A stretch of DNA of 64,000 bases, taken from contig JALJEE010002345.1 of NCBI GenBank assembly GCA_023231475.1, forward strand, positions 1 to 64,000, in the 5' to 3' direction. The stretch comes from Seison nebaliae (lineage: Eukaryota). The first letter of the stretch is position 1. Every line of letters begins with the position of its first letter. Made by a program: the position numbers and the translations under genes. Below the pieces are notes generated by a model that was not told where the DNA came from, did not search any database, and saw nothing but the letters and a program-made list of their open reading frames with translations. Positions 1,454 to 64,000 of the stretch are shown here, in pieces.

Positions 1454-3217
1454 ATGAATGGAAATCACATTTTTGTTATATTATTTTATTTCTTCACAAA
1501 CCATTTAGTTTCAACGAGAATCTATTCACGTCAGAAATGCGGTCCCAAATACGTTTGTGAATGTGTCGATGACTATTATACTTGGGTGATCAATTGTAAA
1601 AATAAGCGTTTGACAAATACAACAGCCAATCAACAATTCTGGCATCAACGACAATACATCACTTATGACTTTTCGTTCAATCGATTGAAGATGACGCAAT
1701 CGAATGTCTTCAAATTCTTCTTCAAAATTCCAATGGACTATAAATATTTCAATTATTATTTCACTTTCAATTATTCTCATAATTATTTGAAAAGTTTTCG
1801 AAATCCCACTTCACACGACTTCCTTAACCGTTACGATTATATGGATCTCAGTTTTAATCGATTCCGATCATTCATTTTAACACCCGATTATAATCGATTA
1901 AAGTCATTGAACATTTCTCATAATAAATTAGAATATTTCTCTGGAAGATTATCGACGAAAGAGAATATTTTAACACGATTGGATCTATCATACAACGAAC
2001 TGACATCAATAACGAGAAATGAAGTCGGTTCACTTTCTAAAATCGAATATCTCGATTTATCTAATAATCAGATTAAAGTGATCGAAGCTGATGCATTAGA
2101 TCAAATGAATGGTTTAAGATATCTCCTCCTCAACAATAATCAATTGAAGATTTTCAGTAATTTGAAATTTACGAAGGAATCCGTTTTCGTTAATTTGTGT
2201 AATAATTCCATTGTCACTTATCAGAAATATATTGATGATTTTATTTGTGATGAGAATAATATTATTCTTCGAATGGATCTTCCTTTATCGATCGATCGAG
2301 ATCCATGTACTAAATGTTATGGAGAAGATACTCATCGAATAATCGAATCATGTAAATATATGAGATCGTTACCATATAATGAAATTAGTCCGAAATGTAT
2401 CGATCATCGGGAAATCGATGGTGCTCGACGATCAGTCAAACGATATTTGAAAAATGAAAATTTGGGATTAAAGAACTCCATCATTTCAGGAGAATCGACA
2501 AAACAGGAATATATTAATAGATTTTCGATGGTAGCCGTCATTATCGGAAGTGTTGTCGGTTTCGTCATGTTGGTTATTCTCATCACTATTTTCATAGTTC
2601 GACGACGACGATTAAATATCCATCATCGACGTAAGAACGAGGAAGAGGAAGAAAAAAAGAAAGAAGAGGAACAAGATCGAGAAATGAGGCAAATGGTAAA
2701 TTTGAAGAGTGAAGGATTTTATGATTATTTAGATGTGACAAACAACAATCAAAATTCAATTTACGTTTCGCTTACGAGAAAAAATTCAAAAAATTTCAAA
2801 AATGTTATTCGTCAACAAATTAATCGTGTTTCTCGTCAAGTTTCATTGATGCCTTATACGATTCTGAGAGGATTAACAGGAAGAAAATATTCAGTTAATG
2901 AATCGGAAAAAGAACTACAAAATACCGATAATTTACCATCAGAAAGTTTTTATGATGCCTCATCCAGAATTCTCACAACGTCCAGTGTATTAGAAGTGGA
3001 TTCATTCTGTCCTATACACGGATCGACAATAGTTAGACAATTTTCTTTTCTTTATTTCATAATTTTTTTGAAGAAAACGAATAAATTAACAGATGAAATA
3101 ACGGATACGGAAATTTATAGTAATAAAGACGATCATCCGTTCGACGACAATGATAACGATGACGACGAAGAAAGTGAGGATAGAAGTGAAGAATATGGAA
3201 CGATAACAAAAAATTAG
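1454..3217 (+). CDS. Leucine-rich-repeat type I transmembrane protein
   Basis: Signal-like N-terminus, LRRNT (CGPKYVCEC), LxxLDLSxNxL repeats, TM segment VAVIIGSVVGFVMLVILITIFIV followed by RRRR; probable in-frame GTT..AAG intron at 3032-3073. Confidence 0.85.
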   Translation: MNGNHIFVILFYFFTNHLVSTRIYSRQKCGPKYVCECVDDYYTWVINCKNKRLTNTTANQQFWHQRQYITYDFSFNRLKMTQSNVFKFFFKIPMDYKYFNYYFTFNYSHNYLKSFRNPTSHDFLNRYDYMDLSFNRFRSFILTPDYNRLKSLNISHNKLEYFSGRLSTKENILTRLDLSYNELTSITRNEVGSLSKIEYLDLSNNQIKVIEADALDQMNGLRYLLLNNNQLKIFSNLKFTKESVFVNLCNNSIVTYQKYIDDFICDENNIILRMDLPLSIDRDPCTKCYGEDTHRIIESCKYMRSLPYNEISPKCIDHREIDGARRSVKRYLKNENLGLKNSIISGESTKQEYINRFSMVAVIIGSVVGFVMLVILITIFIVRRRRLNIHHRRKNEEEEEKKKEEEQDREMRQMVNLKSEGFYDYLDVTNNNQNSIYVSLTRKNSKNFKNVIRQQINRVSRQVSLMPYTILRGLTGRKYSVNESEKELQNTDNLPSESFYDASSRILTTSSVLEVDSFCPIHGSTIVRQFSFLYFIIFLKKTNKLTDEITDTEIYSNKDDHPFDDNDNDDDEESEDRSEEYGTITKN

Positions 3218-3369
3218 AAAAGAATTCTTTTTTAAATCGATTTTAAATCGACTACCAAATTGTCTTTTAATCTAAAGAAAGAGGAAGATAAAATTTTCCA
3301 GCCAAAAACGTTTTTCATATGAAAATAATTTTGCGGAATTTCATTAATTTACGTTCGCTAATGTTTATA

Positions 3370-4529
3370 TTAACCAAGAGTTGGAAATTCTTCTTCTTTC
3401 GTCACATCTGGTTTCGCGCTATGATAATTATCCATAAATTCACGTCTTTTCCCCTCATTGAATTTGATCAAATTTTGTTTGACCGGATCAATCCCCGTCA
3501 TCAACATTTTATCGCTATGATCAACGTTGGATGTTGTGCTATCATTGCGTAAATGTGGGAGAACGTATCCACTTTCTCTGTTTGGTTTACTTTGAGTTGG
3601 TCTCGCTCGAGTTAATCCAAAGTCTGATAAATTCAGATCGGAATTCCCACCAAATCTTTTACTCGGTGCCATATAAACATTATCATTCTGTGGTTCTAGT
3701 GGTGGCATTGGCGGTGGAACATATCCACCAGGTCGACGAGATGGTGGCACATATGCATCTCCGTTTCCATTTGATTCATCTTCGTGTTTCTCTTCTTCTT
3801 TCTTTTCAATTACCGTTTCCGTTACCGTTTCTTCTTTTTTTTCATCTTCTGATTCCGATTCTTTAAAAATAACATTAACTATACATGTTTAATAAGAAAA
3901 AAGGAACTTGATATATTCTTATCTCGTTTCCAGATTTCCGTATTCTTCCCCAAAATCTTCTGCAACGTCAAACTTCGATGAACTTCCTTCTCTTCTGCTG
4001 GTTCTTTTTCCGTCGTCGTCAATATCGTTCTTGAAAAATTGAAATCACAAAATTATTGGGAGAATGAATTCTAACGGTCTATTATTCACTAATCGATTAT
4101 CTGTGTCGAATAAATCATCGTCAGGATCGATTTCTTCTGATAAATGTTCCTGAAAAAAATTATTTTTTACAAAATAAAATTTCCTCGTAGAAATTTTTAA
4201 AATTCGTTAAATTTCCGAAAATAACTTCAATCTGTTGTTTCTTTCGTTCAGCTTCCTCCTGATTCTGTCGTTCTCTGGCGGCAGCAACCGCCTTCGCTTC
4301 CAATTCGTCCACATTAATTTTCGTGATAATTTTCGGAATTTCCACTTTCGCTTTCTCGATCGTCTTATCTTGTTGTTGAAAATAATCCTCGATCGTCATA
4401 TTCTTATGTTTCTTCTTCTTTTCTTTATTCTTCTTCTTCTTCTCCTTCACATTTTTCACCGGAACGTTTTCTTCAAAAAATTACTGAAATCATTCAACAA
4501 TTCCCTTCGATTTTCTAACCGATTTCCAT
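3370..4529 (-). CDS. CDV3-like protein (5 exons)
   Basis: Lys-rich N-terminus, GGYVPP motifs and C-terminal PDVTKEEEFPTLG resembling the CDV3 end; four GTT..AG introns restore the frame from ATG at 4529. Confidence 0.55.
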
Positions 4530-4917: not shown

Positions 4918-5617
4918 TTAAACGATTTTCTTCGCTTCGAAAAATGATTGAAGATGCTTCGCTTGCCAATATCCAGTGACGACGAGAATTCCTAATTGTC
5001 CCAAAAACCAGTAGAGAACACGAGAGTTGGTAGTGTCACTAGTTTGTCGGAATCGTTCTTCCCGATATCTTTGATATTTTTGTTCTTTGGAAATCTGATC
5101 TACTTGGTCTAATAATTGTCGAATTCTCAATTGTAATTCTGTCAATTTCTCACGTCTGGAAATCTTCTCATAATCATTTGTATGTTCTCCAACATCAATC
5201 TTTAAATGAATTCGCTAATTTAAAAAAATAAAAAATATGAATTAATGAAATGAAGAAAATGAATTAAACTAGTTGATTTCCACCGAACCAATTACTCGCA
5301 TTGGATGCCATACAGAGAACATGTTCTCCTGGTTCTTGGGAAGTAAATACGACACGTCCCTCATTACTGTAAGTTTTCGAGAGAAAGATCTTCTGTTGAG
5401 GATCCTTCACTTCCACATGCATTCCCATATTATTAGTTGAGATGATATATTGCATAGTATTAGGATCATACACTTCCACTTTGTATGCTGCTATCACCAT
5501 CGTATCATCAGGAATCTCTTCTATAAAACATTTCTTCTCGCCCTCTTTGATATGAAAATAAAGACCCTGACTTAATACGGGCAACAAAACTAACAATGAA
5601 ATGGGGAAAAATTTCAT
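4918..5617 (-). CDS. TMED9: p24/emp24 family GOLD-domain protein, alpha subfamily (TMED4/TMED9-like)
   Basis: [19 protein letters not shown] ... [15 protein letters not shown] ... FFEAKKIV; one intron at 5215-5269. Confidence 0.9.
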
Positions 5618-8095
5618 TTTGTTATTTTCAATTCACTTATGAATTGAACACGTAGATTTCTTTCAATAATTTATTCACAGATTCACTATAATTCTTTACA
5701 CTTTACACTTTCTGGCAATAATCTAAATAATTCTTATTTCAAATATTTAGTTCAACATAATAATTTCTCAATTTTAAAGAATTTGAATTTGAAACTAAAT
5801 TCTTTATATAGACATTTTGTAAATTATCTCGCCCATTTTTTTCCAGTAATCTTTTATGCATTGAATTATTTATAGAAAGTTCAAAATTGAAATTTTAAGA
5901 AAATATCTTAGGAAAATTCGATTACGAAATAAAATGAAAAATGAAAAATTAGAATGTAATTTAATAATTATTTCTTCTGTTTAAAATTAGTTTAGAAATG
6001 TCAGAAATTGATTAAAGAGTGAAAGTGAAGTGTCTTAAGAACTGAAAGTTTATTTGATGGAGAAAGACGTCCATTTAATATGGGTATGAGTGAGAGTTTC
6101 AAGTAGGAAAAATGTGGGGAACAATTTATTGAAATACATTTACTTAATATTAGTATTAGGAAAATGAAGGAAATTCATATACGTCAGATTATGTAGTACG
6201 TCTATATGGAGAAGAGGAAACAATGATAATTTTCAGTTTAGTCATATTTCTTCTTCACGTCTTCCATATCAGCCAAATGGAGGACACTTCTAATTATTTA
6301 AATACTCAATTAAAAAAAGACATTTCTACTTTTTTCATACGGACAATTTCGAAATTTTTCGTCCCATATTCGTATAATTTCTTAAAGTTCCATGCCTTTT
6401 CCGTCTCATGCACAAAACCTAAAAGTAAAAACTTTAGTCTTATGTTAAATCTAAAATTTAATTGCACGTAGAAATGAATGAACATGTCAAATATTTGTTT
6501 AATGAATATTGTACACGAAAGCGTAATAAGAAAATTTAAATTCAAACTATTCTTGCAGTTCAAAATATATTAAATTTAATTATGTTCATGAATATTTTTT
6601 ATTTAATAAATCTTCTTTATCAACTGATGAAGTTCAACGAATTTGTTGGGGAACAAAACACAATAAACTACCTAAATATTATTATAATAGTATTATGCAA
6701 TCTAAAAATATTGTTAGACTTACAAGAGTCTCAATCGGGAAATTTATTAATTATAATTTCGTAAATTTTATATGTGTATAAGATTCCAAAAACTTCCTTC
6801 TTCTAACTCTTTTTTTCATTTTCATCCACCGAATATATATTTTTTAAGGATATATTTTAAAATTATCATATAAGTTATAGTTTTATAATAATTGAATAAA
6901 AACTTCAATTTGAAAATATAATACCAAATTTTAGAAAGTAGGCATTAAAGTGAAAGCAATTGAAACGGTTTAATTGAACTGTTGAACACATTTTTCGAAT
7001 AGTGAATAAGAAGTTGAATTGTACAAAAGATATCTCTGAAAGGAGTAGCAATGTCCAATTTTGTTAATGACCTTATTGGTAGAGGAAGAGAATAAAACTG
7101 TCCGTTTTCTAATGAAGAATTGAATTTAGTGAAAATGTCCGACCACCTCTCAGCAATTACCACTAGCTCGCTCTCATACAATTTCGCCTATGATTGTTCT
7201 CATTATTTGTTATGTATCATTACAAAGGATAATAGTCTCCAACTAATATGTTATAATGATGATGATTATGATGATGATGATGGTGGCGGTGATGGTGATG
7301 ATGGTGATGTAGTATGTGTATATCCATATCGATTAGGAGAGAAATTATATATAAAAGGAATGTGACAAAAAAAAAGAATAGAAACGCGTTCGCTCATCGA
7401 ACTATTAAAAGAATATTATATTATCGATTCATCGACAACAATAAAATTTTCGACGACAAAGACGATAACTTTTGATGATGTTAGGGAGACGACAGCATTC
7501 CACTATTAATTCATCGATACAAACGATTTTTAATGCCAAAATGTATTTTTGAATAAGAACACTTCTTTCGGAGAAAGTTTTCCTACATTCCTAATAATGT
7601 TTTGTATTGTCTATTTAGCGATGTTTTCGTTCTTCTACCTCCGTTTCCTCATCATCGAAACAAAAGTTTATTTTCAAACTTTCATTTTCTTTCTTCTTCT
7701 TACTTCTTTTGTCATTTCTCCTTTTCTTCCTTTCTCATCCACAGTCTCTCAACTATTCCTTCTTATTCTTACCTGTCGTTGGATCTCACATATTCGTAGG
7801 ATCTGATTGTCCAAACGCATTTCTTTTGAATAATTCATTCGACGTTTACTTCTTTTATTGAAGTTAAAATTAAGTAAGAAATGCGTTTAGACATCAGATT
7901 CACATATGTAACCATCATCAATCATTCTTCATATTTTATCCTACTTTTTTACAATATCGATTTCTATTTCTAATCTAATTATTTATGATTATGACGAGAT
8001 CATATATATATATATTTTTATTTAGGATGAATCCCAGTTTGGGCAATTTTCGATATGAATGATTATGAATGAAACATTAAATATAATTTGTGTTT

Positions 8096-8145: not shown

Positions 8146-8228
8146 AAGAATAAATAGATTAGTATCGAGAATATTTCTTTTCCAAATCTTTTTGTAAATT
8201 CAAAATAATTTCATATAAATTCTACAAA

Positions 8229-9187
8229 TTAACAGAAATTAAGAATTGGAATTTTAAAACAAAAACAAACTTGTCTCGAACAATATCTTAAGTCATCGAT
8301 TGTATAATTGAATTCTTTCTTATCATTGAATCCGGAATCGTTTGATGATGTTTCACAATCATCCACACTCCTCAAAGATGAAGTAGACGATTGTTTCGAT
8401 GTTGGAATTCTTCTTGGAATTATTTTCTTTTCAACTACCGTTGTAGTTTCTCTGGCAATTTTAGATCGTTGACTTAATTCGCTACAAAACTTTTTATTTC
8501 TTTCGATATAATTAACTTTTCTTTTCGGTTTTTTTATCGGAATTTCTTTCGTCAAATATTTTTGATTATCTATTTTCTCTTCTGATAATGATGCGCTTGG
8601 TAATGTTGCAATTGGTGATGGAATCGATATCGATTCCATAATCGAACTTTTCTCGGCCATAGTTGACAACATTTTATATTCAGTCGATTTTCTTTTGTTC
8701 TTTAATGACTTCATTGTTGATGACAACAACATGGAGATGACAAACATTTGTTCTTGAAATTGAGGATTTGAAATGGTTTCGTAAATATTTTGAATGAGTT
8801 TCGATGGAATAATTATGGATTGATTTACACGATTTTTATTCATTGAATTCGTTCCATTCTTTCTTCTCTGTTGTTGTCTCAATTGTTTTCGGTACTTCTT
8901 ACAACTGATACTGTGAGCAAATTGTTTATATGTGATGAGTGCCGTTGACAAGCGTTTGAGGAGAACGATTGCATAGCTGATGAGAATATGACTCGATTTA
9001 ACGGATTTGAATCGATTAATCCGCTTCAATAAACAACGTAGACAAATGTTGTTATATGTAAGAATTGTTTGGATATGATTGACTATTTCCATGACTCTGA
9101 TAACTGTTCGAATGATTTCGAATGAAAGAAGTGAATTAGAAATTGCCCCGAATGATCGATGAATTCCTTTCGAACGTTTATATAGTT
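8229..9187 (-). CDS. Hypothetical basic/Ser-rich protein (large exon; true ends uncertain)
   Basis: Open frame of more than 300 codons in AT-rich DNA, with a candidate CAG acceptor near 9188 and a GTT donor near 8270; no family recognised. Confidence 0.5.
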
Positions 9188-9944
9188 CTGATGAGAATTA
9201 GACAGTTCTTTATTCGTTCGTTAAATACGTTCGACGATAAGGAAACTATAAAACGCAACAACAGATGTGAATATGATTAGGAGAAATGGAACAATAATGA
9301 TTCTTCGGGTAGATTTACGAATAGAAAACTCTCTTTTGTAATATCGATTCTTTCTATCTACTTATTTATATGAGATCGATCTCTACCTATGTGTGTTAAA
9401 GTGAACAATTCATATCTTCCGATAATTCCACTTTATTCGTCTTACTCATTACTAATGCAACAGATTATTCTAACAATTCCATTTACGCTTTCTTTGATTG
9501 CCACAACGGAGATCTCTGTTAATGTGACGACGAATGGGAGTGACTAATAGAATATCAACTGTCTTCTTTATACTTTCAATTCCAACAAGTGGTAACATGA
9601 GAAAATTGTGAAATGACAAGTTTTTTCTAACAAATTATCTCCCCTCACCATCATCCGATAATTTCTCTCGGAAATATGTGATATCGTAATACTTCAAACT
9701 GATTATTATTCTTCCTAAAATTCTTCATTTGACACATCAAAAAAAACTAAAAAGGAATGCTCCATTAATCCGATTAAAATTAAAAGAAAATAATGAATTT
9801 TTTGTAATGTTTGAGATGAGCCATAAAAGGCTTTCTGGCCGTTCCGAAAAGTAGATTACTTGAAAAGATGAAAGAAAATTATTTTTGAAAATTTCAAATC
9901 GAATTTTTAGCTATAAATATTTTCCTCAATTTATTGCACTGATA

Positions 9945-12179
9945 ATGGGACTTTTCTTTAATGATCCGCCACCAATTGCAGACTCTGTTGGATCATCGTC
10001 AGTACCGCCACCATCAAGTGATGGTAAAGATGATGGAATTCCCGTTCCACATTTGGGTAATACGGAGAGTCGATATCGATTCGATTCGGCTGCTCTTGAA
10101 CGTGCCGCCACTGCTGCTAAAGATCTAGAGAAATCGAGTTATTTTCTAGTTCTTATAATTCTCTCTAATAATTTGTTGTTGAAGAACATGCGGATAAAGC
10201 ATTTCAATTGATGCAATCACAAGAGAAAACGAAACAAGTCGAATATGAGAAACAATCGAAAGTTATTTTGAGAGTTTTTAATTGAAAATAATTAATTGAA
10301 TATAAAGGAATTGGAATTAGCTCAAGAAGAATTGAAATTAAAAGCAGTCGCTCAAGCTGCCGAAGAACGACGTCGAACGATGCAAGAAGAAACGAAACAT
10401 CAACAAGAACGAGCGAGATATCAAGATCAATTAGAAAGGAGACGATTTGAAGATCAGAAACTTCAACAAGTTTTCTCTTGAACGAAATTTGAAATTTCTT
10501 AAAAGATTTTCAGACGAAAAATCAAGAAGAGAATTTGAGAAGACAAGAAGAATCGGTGATGAAACAAGAAGCAATGAGAAGAAGTTCGATAAATTTTCAG
10601 AAATTAAAATTTAATTTTTTCAAATGTTCAGAAACAATGGAACAAGAAGCATCATTGAAACATGAATATGATATGAAGAGATTGAAAGCAGAACTTAAAG
10701 GAAAAGCAGAAGTCGAACGAGATAATAGAGAGATTCGAATGGAGCAAATTCGAGCGAAAGCTGAAGAGAATCGAAAAACCGTCATGGAAGGATTGAAGTT
10801 TAATTTATTCTTATTCAATTATTATATTAACGTTTTGAAGAACTGCTGGTGGAATATTAGGACAAGGCTTCTCATATTTTCTCAATCATCCTAATCAAAT
10901 ATTAATGACGGTTTTATTTCATCTTTTTATACCTAATTCAAAACGATTTTATGATAATTTTTATGGAAAGGCTGGTGGATTATCATTATTGGCGTTAGGT
11001 GTCTATTCTAGTCGTACAGCTGTCAATATTGGAGGAAGTATGATAAGTAATCGAATATTGAAACCAGCATTAATTCGTGAGACATCTCGATTGAATGCTG
11101 TTAATGCAATGTTCCATCCAATTCAAGTTAATTTAAGTCAATCATTTTTACAATTAATTATTTTATTTTATTTATTTGAATTATTTGTAGACTATTAAAA
11201 GATTGAAGAATCAAGATGTTGATTCATTGAGTGGAGTAGTATTAGAAGAAGAATTAGAAGCGCGATTAAGAGAGATTGCAATCGCCACAAGAAACACAAA
11301 AAGGAATGGTGGACAATTCCGTAATATACTGATGTATGGACCTCCTGGAACTGGAAAAACATTATTTGCTAAAGTTTCTCTATTTCTTCACATGACATTT
11401 CAATCATATTTCTTTCTCACAGAAATTAGCTAAACATTCTGGATTGGATTATGCTATCATGACCGGTGGTGACGTAGCACCAATGAAAAAAGAAGGCGTC
11501 TCTGCAATTCACAAAATTTTCGATTGGTCACAAACCAGTCGGAAAGGTCTCCTCCTTTTTGTGGATGAGGCAGATGCATTCTTAAGAAAACGAGCTTCTG
11601 TTAATAAGAAATTTCATTGTTTTTTCCTCCATAATTTTTTCTTTAGGAAGAAATTAGTGAAGATGTACGTGCGGCTTTGAATGCTTTTCTATTTCGAACG
11701 GGAGAACAATCGTCGAGATTTATGTTGGTGTTAGCGAGTAATCAACCCGAACAATTCGATTGGGCAATCAATGATCGTGTTGATGAAATTGTAGAATTTC
11801 AATTACCATCACTCTCCGAACGTATTCGATTAGTCATGTTATATTTCGACAAATATATTCTTCAAGGAACGGTACGAAATCGGTTCGATTTAATTTAAAT
11901 TTATTTAATATGTTTGTAAATTAAATATTTTTTAGTAATATCGAATTAGAGGAATTCGATCTGGCATCGAAATGTCGAGAGATTGCTGGATTGACCGAAG
12001 GCTTTTCCGGACGAGAAATCTCTAAACTAATAATTGCTTGTCAAGCAGCTGCTTTCGCTTCCGAAGATGGCAAATTAACATGGAAAATGATAGAAGATAA
12101 AATACAAATTTCACGAACTGCTCATGAACGTAAAGTGGATTGGAATAAAGATTTGTTGGGGAACATACAAAATGTTTAA
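9945..12179 (+). CDS. ATAD3: ATPase family AAA domain-containing protein 3 (mitochondrial), 11 exons
   Basis: [10 protein letters not shown], coiled coil, [18 protein letters not shown] (Walker A), [12 protein letters not shown] (Walker B), [15 protein letters not shown]; ten GTT introns join the frames. Confidence 0.95.
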
Positions 12180-12733
12180 ATATTTCATCGTTTTCTTCTT
12201 TGTAAAGTTTCTTTTCGTTATCAATTTCCTCTTTACAAATCTTTGTTTTCATCTTGATGATTTAATTACGATATTCATGTTATTCGTCATCCTTGTTATT
12301 ATTAGACATTAAACAAATTCTGTTCAATCATTAAACTCTCTTTCATGCGAACTTAATCGGTGAATTATTTTATCAATAAATTTTTGGAAGAAAAACAATG
12401 AAATTTTAACGAAAATTTTTTGTTGACTATAAATTCTATTTTTGTTTTCTTTCTTTCTTTTGAGACTATAAAACTATTGTCAAATATAAAATATAAGACG
12501 TGAGAAAAATAAGAAATTTGTTTTATTGAAATTCTTTTTCATTCAATTTATATTGAAATTCTCAATTTTATTTTAGATTGATTCAAAATGAGAATTGATA
12601 GATTTCTTTTTTGACGAATTAATTTTTTAGCTTTTATATTCCTTCTTTCGATTAGATATCGTATGAACTGACCACCATCGTTTTGTGAGTAGATTTTTTT
12701 TAATTTTCTAGAAAAAAAAATATTGTGAGAAAA

Positions 12734-13732
12734 ATGTCGAATGTGGCAGGTATGAGTACGGATTGTATGACGTTGACACGCTTCGTCTTACAAGAACAAA
12801 CGAAACATAAACAAGCGACAGGTCAATTGACTCAATTGTTGAATTCGATAACTTGTGCAGTTAAATCGATTAGTACTTCGGTGAGGAAAGCGGGATTAGC
12901 TCAATTATTCGGATTAGCCGGTGCTACCAATCAGACAGGTGATGAACAAAAGAAATTAGATGTAATTTCAAATGAATTCTTTGTGAATATGGTAAAATCA
13001 TCATTGACAGCGTCCGTTCTCATATCGGAAGAGGATGAGAAAGAAATTATTGTAGATTCGACGGATCATGTTGGAAAATACATTATCGCATTCGATCCTT
13101 TAGATGGTTCATCTAATATCGATTGTCTCGTATCGATCGGAACGATTTTTGGTATTTGGCGGAAAGATGAATCAAATAACATCCTCCAACCTGGTAATAA
13201 ACTAATAGCGGCAGGATATGCTTTATATGGTTCTGCTACCATGATCGTTCTGGCAACAGATCCTGGAAATGTTAACGGATTCATGTTGGATCCATCTATT
13301 GGAGAATTTATTTTGACTGATCCCAATATGGAATTGAAGAAACGTGGAAAGATTTATGCGATTAATGAAGGATATCAAAAATATTGGGATTCAACAACAA
13401 CAGAATATGTCAATTCGAAGAAACAAGCTGAAAAACCATATGGTGCTCGATATATCGGTTCAATGGTTGCTGATGTTCATCGAACTATTAAATATGGTGG
13501 TATTTTCATGTATCCCGCCACATCACTCGCACCTAAAGGCAAATTGAGATTGATGTATGAATGTAATCCGATCGCTTTTATTGTGGAGAAAGCTGGTGGG
13601 AAATCTTTCTCAGGAAATATAAGAACATTAGATGTAACTCCAACTGATATCCATCAACGAGTGCCAGTAGTACTCGGTTCATCAGATGATGTTGATGATT
13701 ATATGGCCATTTATAATAAAAATAATAAATAA
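12734..13732 (+). CDS. FBP1: Fructose-1,6-bisphosphatase class 1 (coding region intronless)
   Basis: [46 protein letters not shown] motifs. Confidence 0.97.
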
Positions 13733-13860
13733 TTTTTTATTAACATGAAATTTTTTAGTGATTTTAGTTTATTCTTTTTCGGTTTTATTTATTCGAATAA
13801 AATGTTATTTCCCTACAAATCTTCCACCCTTTTTCTTTTCTTTCTCTTCCAAAATAGATC

Positions 13861-15798: not shown

Positions 15799-15998
15799 AA
15801 TTTTCAAATATTTAATTTTCATTTCATTATTAACATTTTATTTCATTTAAATTTTTTAAGTTTTTTTATAAGATAAAACCAATTTATCGTATGTCGAAGA
15901 AAATGTGTTGATGAGAAGAATATGTTTATTTCTTATAAATTAAAATTTATTTCTAATGATATTGAGAAAAAATTTCTATATAATTAATTTATATAAAA

Positions 15999-17170: not shown

Positions 17171-17619
17171 TTTACGAATAAATGACAGGTAAATAATTGA
17201 ATATAAATATTATCTCACTAAATTTATATCACTTGAATTATTTGATTTAGTCCAGTAATTTCGGCGAGAAATGACGTTAACAAATTTTGAAATTTCCTTA
17301 TCGTTCTACTTGATGAGACATCCACATTAATTAGACAAAGACTAGAATTTATTTGTATGAAAGAGAATGTTAGATCAATTAAGAGAAAATCGATAATGGA
17401 TCGATTAATTCAATTAATAAATAATGACAATGTGAAATTTCGAGGGAAAATGTCAAAATTTGAAATTTGAATATGAGATTGTGACGATGCACTTTTATAC
17501 ATTCTTCAATTTTTCGAATTACAATTCAATAGTTTTCATAATTAAATCAAGATAAACGAAATACAAATTAGAATGGAAAAAGATGAGGAGAATATGAAAA
17601 TAAAGCGAATTATTTCTGG

Positions 17620-33065: not shown

Positions 33066-33101
<36 letters not shown>

Positions 33102-51800: not shown

Positions 51801-54800
51801 GTGCAGGTATTAGTAGCGGAACATTGACTAACATAATCAGATAAACTGAATGGGGAAAGTTTAGTACCGAGATTCGGTTCAATGGCACATGGTTGTAAAT
51901 CTTCTTTTGCAATACGTCCATTAAATGTCATGTAGATGACGATGTAAGCGTGTTCGGGACAAGACAATTCGAATGTGTCGAGTGGACAAATTCGATCGGT
52001 GACTTTTGCTTCATCGTCTTCGCAATTCTCCAATTCGTTTAAGTAGTCCACTAAAATCTCTTCGCGTTCTCCATATTCTTGATTCTCCTCCAAGAACTTG
52101 TCGACACTTAACATCTTCGGTCTGGTTTCGAGGACAACTGGTTGGTAGTATTTATGATGAACGGGTACCCGTTCAACATTCGGATAGCAATTAAATCGAA
52201 CGATTAAATGTTTCTCGGTTAACATGCACAATTCTGGTTCTTCAAATACCTCATTACTGATGGTCAAGATACATTCGCTTTTTCCTTCACATTTCGCTTG
52301 GAGAATATCCAATGCTTTCTCTGAACCACAAGGGAATAATTCTTCCGTTTTCGATGGATAATTCGAACAAGTTCCATATTTGACGTTTGCTTCCGGTTTA
52401 CCATAATACGCTTCCATTACATGAATTTTATGTTCCTGAGCACAAATGAGATGAATGATCTCATTCTCACAGATCTCTCGCGTCGTCTCACCACAACTGT
52501 CAACTTTTCCTTTTAAGGCTTTGTAGTAATCAAGTGAAATTTTGGGTGGTGTCTGTTTCAAACATTCAATATCGGCAATCGGCGTTCCAATGAACACATT
52601 TAATTGATTTTTGATAGATGTTTTGATTGGTAGACAATTAAAACCGATCAATAGAGATTTGGGTCGATTGGGACAAACTGAAATTCGGAAGAATTTGTTA
52701 GTCATTTCAAAATTACATTTCTTCTTTCCATTACATAACGAGGAGAGAATGAGTGACATATTCTCTTCGTAACACAATAATTTCGCTTTACGATTCGCTT
52801 GTGAATTATAAGGACATTTCTCATTCGACAACGAATTGATGGCACCATAAACGACCGCTTGAATATTGAGAAGAGATCCTTCACTACAGGAAAGTTCCAC
52901 GGAATCTCGTTCACAAATATTTGCTTGGAATGTAGTATCCATAGCATGGATTAATTTATATTCTTCAACACAACTCGAAATTAATAAATCGTCTTGAAGA
53001 GGAATACCGGTCATATCACATTTGAATTTTGGAACTTCCAAATCTGGTCGTCTTATCAAACCAGTTAAAGCCCAATGTTTTGGCGTATAATTAATTTCTT
53101 TAGCTCGACATCTGAAATTTATGATAGCATGTTTGATAGCATCAGCACATGAAGTTCCACCAAAACTATCGTCATTTATATTCAATTTACACATCATTTT
53201 TCCATTACAAGTCTTCTTAATCCATTCTAAAGCGTTAGTGGATTGACAAGGAAATTCATCATTTCTGCCGTTCCAATTCAAACAATTTCCTGAATATGAA
53301 TTAGGTGTTAATTTCCCGTAGAAAACTCTCAGGATTTCCAAAGTTCCCGAATCATCACATTCGAGAAGAACATCAGCATTTTGACACATGACATCCGATG
53401 TAGTTACACTGGGTTGTACAGCGAGAAGTTCAGCATATTCCTCGTCGGGAGTTCTAAATTGTTGCAAACAATCAGGTTTCAATTCCGGTGCATAGAAAGG
53501 AACTTCTTCTCCGATATAATGATAATTTCGATTTCCATATAATTCCACTGCATTAATACACGAAAATTTCACTTGTAAATTCTTCACCCATTTCAAACAT
53601 TTAATATCGTCAAACAGATCTGAGAATTCTTCTGTATTTATTTCACATGTCTTCTGTCCATCACACAATCCTTGGATGTATGGAAGGATTTCTTTCGTGT
53701 AACATGGCCATATGATATCCTCATACTGAGTTTTACTTCGTGCACATTTCGGCATATCTGAACTGGCTTCATCCAATCTACCGAAATAAGCGGAATTGAT
53801 ATGAATTCGACTCAAACTCGGTTGGCATACCAAAATCAATTTAGACATTTCACAAATCTTTCCTTCATTATTCACACTAGGATGGTCATCTTCTCCCCAT
53901 TGGAAATATTGTTGAATGACGTCATAAGATGAGATGGTACTACTCTTATCTTCCAACCATTCATTCAGATCGATGACAATATTGTCAGTTGTCGATTCAT
54001 AATTAGTGATGAGTAGATTCTCTCGTCTGATGTTCGCTTTGATCGATTCGCAACCGAATTTAACGGCAAATTGTGAAACGGTCACATCACAAATCGAAGG
54101 GAAATATTCGGGTATGATGGAGAAAACACATTTCTCTTGTCCATTACAAAACTCGGCAGCAAAGGCGTAACTGGTGGGCATGTAACACGTGTCGATCTTG
54201 TTGAAAACGGGTCGTTCACAAGTGTTGTTCACTTGCTCCAAATTACCCACACCATAAAGTGCGGCGTAGATTTTGATGGTAGAGAAGGATGGACATTTCA
54301 ATGTTAATTGAGAATAAGGACATACGAGACCGGAAGCCAATAATCCGGCTTTTGAATCAGTCGGTTTCTCTTTCACTTCATCAACTATCATATCGGCAAT
54401 TTCTTGATTGTCAATCTCATCTGTTATTGGTTCAATCTTATCAGATATTTGATGTTGTTTCAATACTAAATGGAAATTAATTCCAATTGTTGTGGTAGTT
54501 GTGGTTGTGGTAGTAGTGGTAGTAGTAGTGGTTGTAATTTTAATACATTCCTCTCGACCGTTACCCATATATTCTCCTCGGCATTCACATTCGTACGTAT
54601 AATCACCAACCTTATTACATTCAGCATTCTCCACACAATCTGGTATTTCCTCTTCTATTGGTTCGCCGTTGATACAGGTAACTTTTTTATCACAACCTAA
54701 CATGATAAATTGACCTGGGGCAATTGTCTTATTATCATAATTACATGAACATTCTTCAATTGGAATACATCGACCTAAATTATCTAAATATTCGTCTGCT

Positions 54801-57800
54801 GGACAACAACATGAACGACTTAATTCAGCGTGACAGAATTCACTGTCCATTGTCGGTCGGAGAGCTGGACAATAAATTTCACATTCTTCTCTATCTTCAC
54901 AAGACACTTCACTCGTATCACAACTTTGACCGAAATGAACATCGGCACATTTCTCATTGTTCAATTCAACCGTTTCAACTAATCCATGCTTACACGGTAA
55001 TTCCATAGCGGTGACGGTGGAGCAAGTTGCTTCATGAATTCTTTTTGATACTTCATCCGTCATTGTACTATTTTCTGGTAATAATTGCATACTAATCATT
55101 TCCAATTCACATAAAGAAACCTTCGTCTCCAAATCACCTAATTTCACTTGAGAGTCTTCCAAATTGAAACATTGTTTGACATCTTCTTGACTGAATACTT
55201 CTTCACATGATTGAGAGATAGTTTCCATTAATTCCTCATCTGTTTCTGTCACTACTTCTCTCTTCTCTAACGAATTCTGACATAATTGATCAACAGTAAA
55301 TTTGTAGCCACCTAACCATTGGAGAGGTGATTCATATCCAATCGTCGTTCCTAACGGATATTCATTATCGTTCGTTAAAATTCTATCCATATTTCCACAT
55401 AATCCTTCAACACTATTATCTGGTGACGGTATCATATTATCGATAATCAAATCCTCATTCTTCGTGTAATCGATTCTCCATTTACATGTGCTATGTTCCA
55501 CCGTATATGCTTGATCACGATGCATTAATACAAAAATTACTTGACCCAAATTATCGATATATTTCGATGAGCCTTCCACCACACTACCTTTATCTCCGTT
55601 ATCAACCAAAGCATAAGACTTCTCGATGTTAATCGTTAAACCGTTCGTCATGATTTTGTAAGATCGATATTGAACATCCCAGTCATCCTCTAACGTTCGG
55701 ACAGTGACGGCTAAATCGCATTTCTTATCCATCGTTTCGATATTTGTCAAATATGTTTCACAATTCGAACGGAAATATAATGTCATACCATCGAAAGTGA
55801 GAACACGTCGGTCATTTTCATATCGACAATTATGCAATTCTTCATCAATGACGAGTGATTCCATTTTACATCCAACTTCATTCTCCGAACGATAATGTGC
55901 CACTCCTTCGAAAAACGGTTTACATTCACATACACTATCTCTACAAACTGCTGCTTCTTCACAATATAACAATTCTTCCAATTGAACCAATACTCCTTCT
56001 TGACATTGGACTTTATGATGGCAATCGGCAGATACGGCCGTTTCTTGATCATTCAAATCATATTGTTCATTTTTACAACGACACTTCGAAGGCTCTACAC
56101 ATTCACCATTGAAATATTTCAAACCCTCTTGACAAATACAACTATCGAAGCCAGTATATTCTTTCATTTCGTCACTCGAACAAAATTCCATTTGGTCCAC
56201 CGTATTAAATATCATGTTCTCTGGACAGACATCAACACAACCCAATTCGCTTGTCACTTGAATATCGACATTACCTTCTACTCGACATCTCGTATCTATT
56301 TCTTTCAAAAGAGGACAAATCAGTTCTGTAGGTTCTTCCACTTGTTTCGTCTCACAAATACTTGTCAAATAGTTTATCCAATCATCTTCCTCCCAAAGAC
56401 CAGAACAATCACCTAAAATTCGTTCATCGAAAATTGTTCGTCTCAAATCATCAGTTAAACAAGGTTCTGGTTCATCTTCCGCTACCAATCTAATTTTCTG
56501 TTGACACATTGGATCGATTTGTCCACCTTTCATCACTTCGAATTGACCACCGCGTAATTCAAAAAATCCAGCTTCTTCAACGAGTTCAGGTCCATAAGCG
56601 GAAATCGTATCGTTACCAGTTTCTTCACATTTATCATAAGTCGCTTCCATACACATTCCCTTGCTAACTTTGCCTAAATAAGATTCGCCCAATTGAAGAA
56701 TGACGTTGTCATCAAAAGTCCAATCAATTCGAATACCACAAATATGGTTTCTAAATTCGACGGTTGATCCTTGAATGGAGAACGAGATTTGAGTAGGATA
56801 GTCAGGATGATACCAATGTTTCTCATCTCTCACCTTATCGTTAACTGTCAATGAAGTTTTATCATAAACAATTCGAAATCCGAAAATCGCAATCCATATG
56901 GATTTCAGAAAAACGGTACTAGTTAACATTTGTTCGAAATTTGCTTTTTCATAAGCTTCTGTCTCGACGACCAATTCATATGCACATTCATCTGCATTTT
57001 GATCAGTAGCTGAAGCCATCATAGGACAAACATTCTGAACATCCATTCTCGTTCCGTTGAAAGTTTTCACTCTCAAACCATCACCTACTTCACAAATAAA
57101 CGGATACACATCGACCGGTTTCGGGTTTTCTGCGAATGCAGCAAATGGTGAATAGACACATTCGTTCGCTTCCTCGTTATAGATATGTTGAGTTTTACAT
57201 TCACATTGACCTCTCTCTTCGTTGCAAGTGGAGAATTCGGGACACTCCTGATAGTTAATCAATCGAACTTGTTGAGGCATAACACATTGGAGAACTTTGG
57301 AGCAATCTTTCGATTTGAATTGTTCATGAAGTGAAAACGATCGTCCTTCGTAATCACATCCACATTCATTCTTCTTTATACATTGACGACGTTCATTACG
57401 AACAAAACCTTCTTTGCAAATACACGCTTCTCTCTTGCCCATATCCATCAAACTGCACGATTCCATACTGTCTTCTAAAGTAAAACAACTCTTCTCGCAT
57501 CCTTCGATTAACGGAGAAAATTCTTCATTCTCATCACAGTCCATCGGACAATTAGCTTTCTCTCGCCAAACAATTGGTGCTTCCATTCCTTGTTTATAAC
57601 ATTCTTCAATTAACGACGCATAATAATGACATGCCAATTTTTTAATACGATTGTTCGGTCCTTTCGGATACAAGAAAGTGATGTCACTCTTCGCCTTAAA
57701 TTTCGTCTCTTCCATCACCGTTTCATTCAATACGCAATCACCAGTGTCAAAACCGATCATTTCAACTACTTCATCGATCAATTTATAATTTGCCTTTATC

Positions 57801-60479
57801 GTTTCATTACCGATGTTGGCATCGATTAAATCTATTTTATCTTGACCAACAGGTCCACATCTATTCGGAGGAAACACATTTAATAGATCTTAACGAAAGA
57901 AAAAATTCTCCAACTTCTTTCCAATATTCGTATCATCATCCACCTCGTACTTGAATCCACCTAACCATTGCATGTCCCAATTCTCCATATACGGAATCAC
58001 TTCATCCGTATCGGTATCCATTAGATCATCCGTCTTATTTCCTATCGATATAAAAAAAATGAGATATTTCAAAAAATGATAAGAAAACCGTTATAATTTC
58101 CACAAATACCACACATTTTATTTTGGAGAATATTTGGTACGAAAATTTTGAATTCCGTATCAGGAATATAAGTTATCATCCATCCGCACACAGTATTAGC
58201 AATATGTCGATGTCTCTTTCGATAAGAGATGATGACAGCGTTCGATGTTCCTTTGTATGGTAATTTGATGGTTCTTTCACTTCTCTTCTCTCCATTCACC
58301 TAAACAAATTTCAATTATTTAACAGATCTAAATTAAATAATAAACGAATAATTGATTCTTATAGAATCGAATTGTTATGTTATCGAATTTGACGTCGACC
58401 AATCTCGTCACTGTTCCTTCCAAATATTTCTCGTGAAAAACTCTGGTGACATCGTGAGTAGCTTTGTGTTCCACACGGAAATGACACGAATCCTAAATCC
58501 GACATGTCAACGGATGAAATTTTGGAAGATTGATATTAACGGTTAAGTCACACACTTCAGCAGCGAGATATTTGCATTGTCCTTGAAAATGGAGGATATT
58601 ATTATCGAAAGTTTTGTAATGAGGATCTCCTTCGATACGACAGAAAGCCGCACTCTGCTCCCATGCATTGTACAAGTCACGTTTCCGCAATTTACCTTCT
58701 CGATATAATTCCCAGATCTTCTTATGATTTCCAATTTCGAATAATCGATCCATCTCATCTCGAGACGATAAACAATTTTCCATTCCATCACCAATATAAG
58801 GAAGAACGCATTGACATGTATTGAAATCTAATTTATCTGTGTCACATTGTGCAGATTCGTGACAGAATGAGTCTTTTTCTTCAACTTTTGAAAATTCAGT
58901 ATTTTCTTGACATATCCATTTGCTGGCACAGTCGTCCTTATAAATGAAGGATCCGAACTGAAAGTTAGAAAATAAATGGTGAAATAATCATTAATTCAAA
59001 ATATTCAAACTTTCACATTAACACCCGATTCCGTTTTACATCCACAAATTGATCGTGGTTCACATTTGTTGTTGTTCCACACATATCCTTCTTTACAGAA
59101 ACAGATATTTTTCTCTGGTTTCTCACAATTCTTTCCCTCCATATCCTCACAAGTTTTCTGACAGGATTTCGTATAAGTCAATTCTTCATTCTCTTCACAT
59201 TTCTTACCTGAAAGTATAAAATCAAATAAATTTTCATGTTTCTCCTTCTTTGACAACTAACCGCAATATTCAGATGTGGTCCAATCGAAGTCCAGACCCA
59301 ATTCCACTGAACAGATAGAATAGAGATATCTGGTGGTGAAGCAGAAGATATAATCCTTCAAGTTCATCTGTTTTTCTTGGAGAAAATCGTTCAATTCAAC
59401 CGAATGTTTCTTGCAAACACCTAAACGGTCATTCAAGAAATCCTCACGTTCAGGAATACTCTAAAGAATGTCATCACTTTAAAATTGTCTCTTAAAAGTT
59501 AACAGATAAGCAAGATCGGAATTGGCCTTCATTTCTAGATAAGCCCAATGAATCCATAGCACAAAATGCGGAGACTTGTGTCACAAAATTTTGGTCATCT
59601 TCACTGCCGGTTTGAACGGATTTTATAGTGTTGTAACCATTCAAGATGTTCTCTTTCGAATCGAATTCGCATCTGTTCACATTGACATTGAATTAAGTAA
59701 AATATAAAATGAAAAAAAAAACTTTGTTCCAATATCAGTGTCATCTAATGAGAGATGTTGTACGGCACCGTTCCATTCTAATGTTAGTTCGGTAGGTTCT
59801 AATATCTTACCAGCCTCATCTCCATATACCAGTGCGAAATCATCAGTGGCATCACCATTTCCATTAGCACATAGACCACAAACATCAGCATGATCGGACG
59901 GTATGGTAACGGTGACAAATTCGTAATTCATAATTGTTACCAATTTGCCACATTTGAGATCCTTGATAGTGATCACATTCTCCTTTGAAGAGACTTCGAT
60001 TACACCTTGCTGCTTATAGGGCAAGTTGACTTCCAAATTATTAATCTGTATATTTAGACAGATTAATTCGATTAATATATTTGAAATTTAACGGTCAATT
60101 CATCATTGGAATAAACGACAGATATTGCTTCAAATTTAGCAAGAACATAATACTCCAATTCGTTGTCGACCAATTGAACTTTCCGTTCAATACTGAAATC
60201 ACATTTGTCCTTGAATAATTGAGAAATAATTTGAAGAAGTGAGGGAAATCAAAAGGCAAAACTCCAATGGTGCACGACTTCGCCAAATAGAATTTACAAG
60301 GCAAATAATAATTGTAAATGGCTCCGTCGAATGTCGTTACGTGATCCAACGAAGTTACCCTACAAGTTACTAAAGAACGAGAAGGATCATAAGAAGATGA
60401 GTTAAGACATAAAAAATAAACAGTCGTTTTCAGCTAGAACTGCACTAGCAGTTAGAAGTATTGCAAAAATAGGAAACAT
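48821..60479 (-). CDS. Giant secreted multidomain glycoprotein: signal peptide, 4x VWD with C8/TIL/EGF modules, Thr-rich linker, 10x SUEL/rhamnose-binding lectin, PAN/apple domains (~3,500 aa, 16 exons)
   Basis: MFPIFAILLTASAVLA signal; VWD motifs (GDPHYKTFD, CGICGNYNG, GLCGNMD); ten repeats of C.....L.C.....I.I..A.YG..C..C.G...C; C-terminal C...C..C.G..Y PAN-like units; fifteen GTT introns. Confidence 0.88.
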
Positions 60480-62784
60480 TTCTATTTCCAAAGAATATTT
60501 GCTTCTGCTGTCCAATTGTCGGGGAAGGTTCTTATATATTCCAATTAGTTTTCAAGAAGCGTTCGAGTTCTCTTCTCAGCATCTGTTGGAGTTAGCGCCA
60601 TCGACTCATCATGTCGGAGAAGTGATCGCTACTTGAACTTCAACTCAATTAATTTAATTATTTTCTCTTTTACAATTTTTTCAATAGAATCATGTGGAAT
60701 TGGTCAACTCTCCAAACTTACATTACATCGAAGGACATCCTATTAAAACTTGTCAAAGTAATTCTTTTTTCATCGTCTATCCATATGAAAAGCAATAGAA
60801 AGTCAATCTTATCTCGCCGAGTATGATTGGAGAAAATACTTTTCAGTGTTACAGAAATTGCTTATTAATATTTTTTATTATTGGAAATAAACGATATTTT
60901 TAATTAAATTTCCTATTTTTATTTACCGTCACCGATGATGTTTATCCATTCGTAGGCGTAACAAATCAATAACTTCCTCCACTATCAATTTTGTCGTTGG
61001 AATAATATTAATATTTTTAACGACGAATAGTTTTTAATATTTCCATTAACCTCCCCACATTTACACTGCGCAAAGTTATCCATATAATCATTGTGGCTGT
61101 TTTAAAAATACCTAATAGACCAAATGTACTAAATAAGAGTTATTTTCAAAACAAAGAGAGCTACATTATTTAGAGGCTAAATGAGATCTATTTACCTACC
61201 ATATTTACAATATTGTTAGTCCATCCATATAGCTATTTTAAGCCTATAACTAAAGTTGTTTTTATACTCTATTTTCAACTTCAAAAAACAGATGTTTTAG
61301 CGACTAATTACAATTCATTCTTATACCTTATTGAAGTGCTTCCAAATACATCGCTATAAAGGGCTAATTTAGATGATATTCTATATTATATCAATTAGTG
61401 CTAGAGAAGTCTATTAAGTTAGTTATTAAATTTGTAATTATTCCTCTTTATCTAAAAATTATGTTTTATGATTTTATGATAATGAAATTAATTTTGTTTG
61501 TCAATAAAGATGATGTCAATTGTCAATAAAGATGGGATTTCGATCGAGACAAAGAAATATTACGATAATGATCAAAATACTTGCTTCGTGATTCGAATAA
61601 TATAGATATCTGTACGTTAAATATATACTTAAAATAATGCAACACTAAAATCATTTAATTTTAAAATGCATTTGATTATTTCAATAGTGAGCAAAAACAA
61701 AAGAACACTTTTAGTATTTGACTGACAAGGAAAGTTTTCGATAAGAAAGAAATCAAAAATAGAAATAATAGGATATGTGAAAAATTCTGCTGATTGTAGA
61801 TATGATAGAATTTTTATTTTTTTGCCTAATAGTTAACATAGTTTATAAATTGGGATAAAACTCATAAATTACAAATCAATGTAATAATGATGATATATGC
61901 GATTCTTCTCTTACAAGTTAGTCTAGTGTTAGTTTTGGTTTAGTTTTATATAATCTTTATTATTTACATGCATTAGGGCTGTTTGTAATTTTGGTTCCTT
62001 CAAATTTTAAATGTTCAATTCCAGGAACAGAAATCGTAATGCCCTATGCGGAATACGCAACGGCTTTGTTTTCATGGACTATTTCATTCAACACATCATT
62101 CATATATTTCAACGACAAAATATTGTCGGTACTGTGTCGCTCCTTTTTAACATCAATGGAAAAATTATAAACGCAAGCTGAATTTTTAAACTAAAGAAAC
62201 TTGAATTTTCTTAAACAAAAATTTAGATTATTCAATAAGCTTAAACATACTTAATTCAATTAGGTACTTATAGAGACCATCTGGGGCCCATTTGGACTGC
62301 ACTTGATTGTAATGTTCTATATTATATCTATAACGTTCTCTAAATTTTTATTAGATTTTTCATCTTTCTAAGTGGATCTTCCATTATAATAATAACGAAA
62401 TAACTCTTATTGAGTTATTTCGTATTGAGTGCGTTTTTGTGTACTAAAGAAACTCTCATATCTGTCAGTACATATTTTTAAAGCAATTGAACTATTATTT
62501 ATTTCTATCGAATAAATTTGACGAATATAATATTTAATTAGAAAAAACTTTCATGGTCGTATGTGTCAGTCCTAGAAAGTTGAAATAAAACAGAAAAAGG
62601 ACAATCGATCTCATTAAAGTTCTTTTAATTGACTTGATGTTGATTGTTAACCTTTTTTTATGATCCAGTTATTTTATGCGTTTATGCAGTATGATATGAA
62701 AAGATGTAGTTAAATTTAATGAGATTTCCCGATGCTATTTCTATTCATCATTCCATGGTACAATTTCAGATCAGAATATTGAAA

Positions 62785-64000
62785 ATGGTTCATCAAAAAA
62801 CTTTCATAATAATAACTGTAATTTTATTGTACTCAGAATTCTCATCAGTTCGTACTGACAGTGAGATTATAGATTTTTCGAAAAGTTTAATTTTTGTTAA
62901 GAAAAGTTATGAGTTGTTTAATTCAAACTAGAAGATTGGTATGAATTTGAAAAAAAAGTCATCAATTTCGAACAGGTTGAAGGTAAGACAGAGAACAAAG
63001 TAAAATGTGATGATAATCATTTCCGAATTATGTTAGTATTTATGATCTAATTTTTCCAATTCTTAATTAGAGCACCTGTTTGGGGTGCTTCTCCCGTAGT
63101 ATGCGGACAAGGACTTACTCCTAAAACATTGTTCTTTAACACCACACAGATTTATTGTTCAGGAGAAGGATGTCGGAGAAGACTCAAAGGGAGAATTAGA
63201 AAACCGATCAAATCGGAATTAAACACTGAAATCAATATATGGAAATTGAAACGTATTCGAAATGATGAATATGAATTTCTCTGGGAAACGAATGGTTTCA
63301 CTGATACGGTTATAGAAATCGATGACGATATCCTGAATCAATTTCAAATAGTGAACGTTATAAATAAATATCATGAATGTAATGTTAATTTGACAAATCC
63401 TCTTACTCTTCCCAGAGAATGTAAAGAAGTCAAATTTGTAGTAGAAAGTTAGGAAGATTAATAAGTTTTCTTATTTTAAATTTTTGAAGAATCATCACCG
63501 AAACATTATAATGCTGCCGGTTATTTTTATATCAATAAAAATTAATCACTTCAACAATGAGGAAATTATACAGATTTAAAAATGAATAAATGGTCTTGCT
63601 CAAACTGCAAAGTCACATTCACCAATTTCCATATTCGCGATTTTAGTTTAAGTAAATTTTTATTTGTATATTGGTGTAAAGATTATTATGTAAAATTAAG
63701 GTTAGTTCAATAGGAATGAAACTTATAATAATTCAAATATGTTTTATTAATCTTCAGTTCTTTTCATCAGAATAGACAATATGAAGGACCACGTCTTTGT
63801 ACGGACAAAGTGAAACCAGTAACGATAAACGGTGACAATGTTACGATTAAAATGTCAAAGAACTTTTCCATTGATATGACTTGGATAATGGAATATTGTT
63901 TATTTATTTTGTATAGAAAAATTTAACTTGTTTGAAAAAAGATACAATTAAAGATGATTGGGAAGCTATTTACGATTTTAATGTCACTGATATCGATTTA
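62785..64000 (+). CDS. Secreted or membrane protein with CUB-like segments, 3'-partial
   Basis: Signal-like MVHQKTFIIITVILLYS; spliced exons give CKVTFTNFHI and GPRLC..GDNVTIKM; GTT introns including a 19-nt exon at 63682-63700. Confidence 0.5.

Follow-up and report, generated by a model that had tools for sequence, protein, structure and literature searches.

Genes and Introns of the Window

The sequence analysed here (the window) is a 64,000 nt stretch of contig JALJEE010002345.1 from Seison nebaliae, a seisonid, epizoic rotifer relative (Seisonidea, Syndermata) with a ~46-Mb genome of 32% GC (PMC8351084). An ATAD3 exon of the window is a 100% match to SNEBB_006415 of this species, and six further deposited SNEBB proteins belong to the same contig. 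Introns were modelled by mapping 11 database proteins onto the DNA without an assumed splice motif (62 introns) and by four hand models with open frames (25 introns), giving 87 introns in 15 genes on both strands of this single window. All 87 have GT...AG termini, and the donor is GTT in 83, GTA in two, GTG in one and GTC in one. The GTT share is 59/62 among database-protein introns and 24/25 among hand-model introns. Near-universal GTT donors are confirmed at the DNA level, in line with an earlier note on this sequence that had counted about 85 introns, all but about three of them GTT. The genes and their donors are as follows.

1454–3217 (+), LRR transmembrane gene: introns 1475–1534 and 3032–3073, both GTT; P0249 maps 553/553; LRR_8.
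3267–4529 (-), low-complexity charged protein gene: donors 4519, 4225, 4075, 3907 and 3374, all GTT, last acceptor 3272; P0248; no Pfam match.
4918–5617 (-), TMED/p24 gene: intron 5269–5215, GTT; hand model; EMP24_GP25L.
9945–12179 (+), ATAD3: donors 10138, 10262, 10470, 10584, 10798, 10911, 11127, 11374, 11600 and 11883, all GTT; P0121 (SNEBB_006415) maps 577/577.
13861–15798 (+), PRPF4: donors 13915, 14312, 14620, 14854, 15005 and 15189, all GTT; P0241 maps 534/534.
15999–17170 (-), sulfotransferase a: donors 17067, 16859, 16510 and 16297, all GTT; P0242.
17636–18789 (-), sulfotransferase b: donor 18693 GTA as deposited; 18478, 18131 and 17937 GTT; P0244.
20628–21505 (-), TYW3: donor 21241 GTG as deposited; 21087, 20975, 20869 and 20750 GTT; P0246.
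23821–24826 (+), CIAPIN1/anamorsin: donors 23975, 24344 and 24651 GTT; 24475 GTC; P0243.
25191–29152 (+), M1 aminopeptidase: 15 introns, all GTT, e.g., 26880–26926; P0245 maps 1055/1055.
32021–33784 (-), MED15-like gene: donors 33710, 33547 and 33186, all GTT; hand model, open frame; Med15_C.
35110–35670 (+), unidentified gene: intron 35207–35263, GTT; P0251 maps 167/167.
37516–42528 (-), claudin/TARP-like gene: 42077, 41868, 41728 (249 nt), 41329 (912 nt) and 40201 GTT; 39716 GTA; hand model, open frame; PMP22_Claudin.
48875–60479 (-), VWD/TIL/SUEL-lectin giant gene: 15 introns, all GTT; hand model, 3620 aa open frame; Pfam.
62785–64000 (+), secreted-type gene running out of the window: donors 62885, 63032, 63448, 63520, 63701 and 63898, all GTT; P0250, first 311/470 aa mapped.

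The set leaves out a minus-strand gene at ~8229–9800, the open reading frames (ORFs) 33856–34104 and 36185–37420, the region upstream of 35110 and introns of untranslated regions, where non-GTT donors are possible. At the 3′ end of the claudin/TARP-like gene (37574–37390, minus strand) a canonical-looking GTAAGA/GTAAGT stands just before the stop codon, and its phase matches that of an acceptor with which ORF 36185–37420 opens; were gene and ORF joined, an intron of ~180 nt with a canonical donor would result.

Most introns are tiny, 84 of the 87 measuring 39–76 nt (median 49 nt), and the remaining three are 103, 249 and 912 nt long. The examples given in the earlier note were recovered in place (ATAD3 10138–10184, TMED 5269–5215, PRPF4 14312–14371, and aminopeptidase 26880–26926, which splits HEISHM/WFG), and the ~0.9-kb intron it had placed near 41329 is the 912-nt intron 41329–40418, with a GTT donor.

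A GTT alternative is present for two of the four exceptions. In sulfotransferase b, a GTT 7 nt downstream of the deposited GTA (18693), at 18686, keeps the 45-nt length and gives an intron equal in position and phase to that of its paralog, sulfotransferase a. This is the likelier true donor, although the deposited reading also aligns well with estrogen sulfotransferases at those residues. In TYW3, an in-frame GTT lies 15 nt upstream of the deposited GTG (21241), at 21256, and is weakly favoured by shorter archaeal homologs. The CIAPIN1 donor (GTC, 24475) has no GTT alternative and is the clearest exception, while the fourth, the GTA at 39716 in the claudin/TARP-like gene, comes from a hand model. 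The gene sets said earlier to be wholly GTT are so for ATAD3 (10/10), the aminopeptidase (15/15) and the VWD gene (15/15); the sulfotransferases have 7/8 as deposited, and probably 8/8 with 18686.

Independence from the Annotation

For every ATAD3 junction, only one of the placements compatible with the deposited protein is GT-AG, and a spliced aligner with an intron cost blind to +3 found the same introns, all ten GTT, when given the proteins of Brachionus, Capitella and Drosophila. No gap interrupts the alignment of PRPF4 with its human counterpart at the five junctions that it covers. The same applies to the aminopeptidase and human glutamyl aminopeptidase at the motif junctions, including HEISHM/WFG and PEWHV/WNS, the latter using the GTT at 27041 despite an in-frame GTA 3 nt upstream (27038). 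A coding model blind to +3 placed GTT at 44 of 52 called introns, despite several mis-set starts. Contigs of DNA run X3 show no differences from the window over 9900–23734 and most of 23787–27895, so assembly error at the introns of these parts is excluded. Runs X1–X3 behave as DNA, without intron-skipping joints.

Composition and Signals of Donors and Introns

Read on the sense strand, the introns hold more T (45%) than A (32%), and the earlier argument that AT-richness should favour GTA as much as GTT is therefore not quite right: composition by itself would favour GTT. Its conclusion stands, since 78 of the 162 GTs inside introns (48%) are followed by T, as are 370 of 1229 in exons (30%) and 39% over the whole window, nowhere near the 95% seen at donors. 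The probability of 83/87 is 3e-24 against an expectation of 0.45 and 3e-17 against 0.55. GTT is also thinned in the last 27 exon bases (0.96%, against 1.58% deep in exons; p = 0.03), while GTA is not (p = 0.74). Among intron positions from which a competing donor would still leave 39 nt or more, GTT occurs at 8/911 against 51/2886, which is only suggestive (p = 0.065) and opposite in bdelloids. In 15 of 85 short introns a GTA, GTG or GTC site with better pairing to canonical U1 lies in range, unused by the model.

The remaining donor positions, which had been described as unconstrained at +4 to +6 and at -1, are weak but not free (p-values uncorrected). Position +5 is G in 28/87 (32%, against a background of 8.8%; p = 7.5e-10), -2 is A in 43 (p = 0.003), -1 is G in 26 (p = 0.02) and A in 39, and +8 is T in 55 (p = 6e-4). 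Position +4 has A 36, C 16, G 4 and T 31, against a 45% T background, and is linked to its neighbour, +5G occurring in 17 of 36 donors with +4A and 11 of 51 without (p = 0.019). G at +6 is below background (4/87). At +3, C is found once (background 14%) and the purine of the GTR consensus three times. Both -1G and +5G are lacking in 43 donors, with no see-saw between the two (OR 1.5, p = 0.46), and the T share is 52–63% at +7 to +10. Thirty-six different hexamers occur, the commonest being GTTAAT (9), GTTAGT (8) and GTTAGA (6); these are the rotifer GTAAAT/GTAAGT pattern with +3 alone switched. Donor information over -3 to +8 amounts to 6.4 bits, against 8.4 and 9.9 in small rotifer sets.

Acceptors are TAG (40), CAG (24) and AAG (23), never GAG. 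The AAG share is about the background A content, against 2/63 in bdelloids and 5/15 in monogononts; the rule of a pyrimidine at -3 is relaxed. No branch-site motif stands out: YTRAY is found in 39/85 introns (35.2 expected), and TGA alone is enriched (z = 3.0), as in bdelloids. The introns fold no better than shuffled sequences (z -0.14 ± 0.12), with nothing specific in end-to-end structure. A transposon-derived (introner-like) family was rejected given this folding result, the 36 hexamers and the ancestral intron positions described below. U12-type introns, whose 5′ motif is RTATCCTT, were rejected as well, there being no GTATCC among the 87 hexamers.

Orthologous Introns in Other Rotifers

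A metagenome scan gave 36 ATAD3 loci, of which the 18 with rotifer best hits were analysed and the 18 with best hits outside rotifers left out. In a tree, 14 of these loci group with Rotaria (support 1.0) and four with Brachionus (0.998). L001 and L009 (no introns), L005 and L006 (near-duplicates of L002; 20 introns, +3 T in six) and two garbled introns of L021 were dropped. The resulting 78 introns are orthologs rather than independent cases, and the conclusion rests on the per-position result.

Position +3 is A in 46, T in 15, G in one and C in one of the 63 bdelloid introns, and A in 13 and T in two of the 15 monogonont introns (together A 59, T 17), although intron composition is like that of Seison (bdelloids 44% T). 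The +3 bias is thus absent from orthologous introns of related species, the comparison the earlier note had proposed. Nine of the ten Seison ATAD3 positions and phases are common to bdelloid or monogonont loci, and at these nine the relatives have a majority of A at seven, a tie at one and T at one. Old introns have therefore been converted to GTT, instead of a new intron family having arisen.

The ATAD3 intron at aa 165 is GTT in all seven relative loci that have it (L007, L010, L012, L016, L017, L021 and L031). A minority GTT class (17/78 overall) was thus already present in rotifers as raw material.

The change in donor specificity put forward by the earlier note is supported in that ancestral, mostly GTA positions are now GTT, GTT is thinned upstream of donors, and better canonical sites go unused. 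It is likely that the splicing machinery has changed in what it reads at donors.

A Changed U1 as the Favoured Cause

The U1 5′ end, 5′-AUACΨΨACCUG, pairs with donor positions -3 to +6 (PMC9311317), after which the U6 ACAGA box and U5 loop 1 take over the donor (PMC11732430). The cause we favour, with a probability of roughly 0.45, is a U1 snRNA with A instead of pseudouridine opposite intron +3, as in Entamoeba. The Seison U1 5′ end would then read ACUAAC instead of ACUUAC, giving a G-C/U-A/U-A core, and expressed Seison U1 genes would not all read AUACUUACCUG at the 5′ end. As A, unlike pseudouridine, has no wobble partner, +3 would collapse onto U, and ancestral introns would have been converted to GUU one by one. 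Short, U-rich introns recognised by intron definition might have allowed -1, +4, +5 and +6 to relax, and a possible loss of METTL16, responsible for the m6A of U6, could have removed the +4A preference.

Several observations are consistent with this. The near-absence of C at +3 points to A rather than G as the pairing partner, and the residual +4A/+5G signal in the canonical register implies that pairing to an RNA persists. Against the canonical U1 end taken from L040, the mean number of Watson-Crick pairs is 5.09 for Seison donors, barely more than the 4.79 of unused GTA/GTG decoys; bdelloid and monogonont donors make 6.67 and 6.60. A U1 with A at position 6 gives 6.02 pairs against 4.24 for decoys, an arithmetic consequence of the +3 bias and hence a fit rather than proof. 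Flank pairing exceeds the null at z = 5.6 in the canonical register, 1.8 with a +1 shift and 2.7 with a bulge. Five Entamoeba species with GUUUGU donors have U1 ACAAAC and a U6 ACAGA box that is kept (bioRxiv 10.1101/2022.06.08.495308), a change at exactly this U1 position beside a standard U6, which serves as a precedent.

As for METTL16, a BUSCO table scores it 'Missing' in Seison alone among 25 syndermatans, with SNRNP27 complete; SPF45 and LSm2 are likewise missing only in Seison, and SNRNP40 in Seison and one bdelloid (PMC12256650 supplement). Snurportin-1 is scored missing in Seison and both acanthocephalans (same supplement). The +4 A:T ratio is 36:31 in Seison and 62:7 in other rotifers, and in yeasts METTL16 loss accompanies +4A loss (PMC10581693). 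The call fits the lost +4A of Seison and leaves +3 unexplained.

A number of points weigh against a changed U1. The donor letters cannot separate U1 from U6, both of which offer AUAC-type sequence to +5 to +8. Entamoeba is strict at +3 to +6, whereas Seison is fixed at +3 only; the 43 donors lacking -1G and +5G would pair little even with a changed U1, and at least one GTC and one GTA donor are apparently used. BUSCO 'Missing' calls are unreliable for Seison, since LSm2, an essential protein, is also scored missing. Most lineages with atypical donors (yeasts, Giardia, Thecamonas and Micromonas) have kept a standard U1, though these cases concern +4 (10.1101/2022.06.08.495308, PMC10581693).

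An Rfam scan found no snRNA within the 64-kb window. A U1 pattern search gave no loci in viral contigs and seven in genome contigs (L037–L043), all canonical U1 of other animals. These seven are bacterial metagenome-assembled genome contigs with animal U1 genes (one also with U2), i.e., host contamination. Reads of runs X1–X4 on L040:381–600 gave one U1-like contig per run (392–458, 12 differences, one of them at 425), which is uninformative on Seison U1; its upstream flank is 60% GC, its depth is 0.38–0.63 of the window's in X1–X3, and it may come from another organism. Its stem II looks arthropod-like, and its origin is doubtful.

Alternative Explanations

The selection might instead lie at the U6 step, with the ACAGA box accepting only +3 U, either because METTL16 loss leaves it unmethylated or because its G opposite +3 has become A, and a standard U1 pairing weakly. 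The BUSCO losses described above and the lost +4A would suit this, the residual +5G and +8U are as compatible with U6 as with U1, and GUUUGU can pair with ACAGA at +2 to +6 according to the Entamoeba paper (10.1101/2022.06.08.495308). An unchanged G opposite +3 should, however, favour C too, contrary to its single occurrence. METTL16 loss is tied to +4U rather than +3U, and +4U in Seison is not above background; moreover, the ACAGA box shows 100% conservation across 240 yeasts and outgroups (PMC10581693), and the BUSCO table has SNRNP27 as complete. We regard this explanation as unlikely. We would not readily assume either that U1 pairing has become largely dispensable, with U1C, LUC7, PRP8 or a U-rich binder of TIA1/Nam8 type reading GUU and the intron being set by length, U-richness and the first AG. 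Half of the donors, lacking -1G and +5G without any see-saw, fit neither the AG//GU nor the //GURAG class (PMC11732430), and the low donor information, the T-rich +7 to +10 and the narrow range of lengths all agree with a protein reader, as does, weakly, the failure of one attempt to find a U1 attributable to Seison. Yet the +5G excess and the +4A/+5G linkage imply an RNA helix, and the 249-nt and 912-nt introns use GTT as well. It is conceivable, if doubtful, that after GUR to GUU conversion of its whole ancestral intron complement Seison, an animal, has a third kind of donor recognition: GUU alone would be read by a rewired snRNA or a protein, and the support on the U5 side (AG//GU) or the U6 side (//GURAG), usually regarded as necessary, would be absent.

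Standard U1 binding in a +1-shifted or bulged register, as at rare human donors of the GUUAAGU type, was rejected as highly improbable: -1A, +4A and the bulge z of 2.7 speak for it, but it predicts +6G, which is below background while +5G is enriched, GTTAAG occurs in 0/87, and both registers fall well short of the canonical z. An artefact or drift is very unlikely too, be it through biased annotation, T-rich mutation pressure acting on relaxed donors or some property peculiar to this contig. The T-rich introns, the single 64-kb window and the reliance on DNA and protein models would allow it, but the excess over background (p ≤ 3e-17), the agreement of the two approaches blind to +3, the 15 unrelated genes on both strands and the +3 T of only 15/63 in bdelloid introns of near-identical composition oppose it.

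Other Features of the Window

FBPase, UNC-50 and SAS-6 (12734–13732, 19495–20256 and 21686–23656) are intronless amid genes with up to 15 tiny introns. The VWD/SUEL gene has one 8-kb exon (49825–57860), and its 3620 aa, secreted-type protein combines VWD, TIL, EGF and eight SUEL lectin stretches, an unusual mucin/lectin architecture. A mir-219 hairpin at 7796–7904 (+) is under the Rfam gathering score (E 1.4e-6, 43.7 bits); one Mir-219 is listed for Seison (PMC12256650 supplement). Part of the aminopeptidase 3′ half recurs, inverted and rearranged, at 29308–30057 (arms of 269, 120 and 54 nt at 94–97%), where it is split by a MITE-like (miniature inverted-repeat transposable element) inverted repeat with 94-nt arms at 29530–29779. 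Adjoining this duplicated region is a GC-richer stretch (30204–31309) with an intronless Ser/Pro-rich ORF (30677–31309) that contains short direct repeats and has no Pfam match.

Implications and Comparison with Known Systems

The consensus switches known so far are mainly those of intron-poor microbes, in which only a few introns need to adapt when the machinery changes. Old introns converted to GUU in an intron-rich animal indicate that coevolution of this kind can extend to many introns. In Seison it can be tested which component (U1, U6 or a protein) determines the +3 base and by what path a transition crosses the mixed state. GTR is described as the common donor pattern in organisms from yeasts to mammals, and GTT is penalised by aligners (PMC9869432). 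Default gene finders and BUSCO may give wrong models for the Seison genome, which could inflate reported gene loss.

The earlier note knew of no described animal genome with this pattern, and the literature searched, which leaves out most subscription journals, contained no account of GUU donors in Seison or as the usual donors of any animal. Term searches found no mention of splice signals in the Seison papers PMC8351084 (including supplements), PMC12256650, PMC12690905 and PMC10125929; PMC4901422 concerns GC donors.

A precedent outside animals, which the earlier note did not name, is Entamoeba, another AT-rich, host-associated eukaryote with near-universal +3 U in GU-AG introns (Roy and Bowser, 10.1101/2022.06.08.495308). 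Entamoeba is intron-poor and has a strict 6–7 nt motif (88–90% GUUUGU) and a demonstrated U1 change (same source), whereas Seison is an intron-rich animal with +3 alone fixed and weak -1, +4, +5 and +6; GTTTGT occurs in 2/87. Seison thus resembles Entamoeba in the +3 base and differs from it in looseness and intron density. Donors of the GUUAAGU shifted-register type, reportedly described by Roca and Krainer in 2009, start with GUU as well, but are rare sites and not the norm, and Seison lacks both the +6G excess and GTTAAG. Alternative U1 registers are also mentioned in PMC9311317. With the two-class donors (AG//GU and //GURAG; PMC11732430) Seison shares GT-AG ends, ancestral positions and residual +5G and -2A, but +3 R is replaced by U and half of its donors belong to neither class.

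The +4 A-to-U switch of Saccharomycotina, with loss of METTL16 and SNRNP27K (PMC10581693), is likewise a lineage-wide shift at a single position, and METTL16 is scored missing and the +4A preference lost in Seison. In Seison, however, it is +3 that has shifted, without a preference for +4U, and SNRNP27 counts as complete. Fritillaria borealis provides an animal lineage in which genome-wide altered splice signals are tied to snRNA modification and splicing-factor change. There, specificity has widened (95% escape GT/AG) and a new intron class has arisen (PMC13326754), while in Seison it has narrowed to GUU on old introns.

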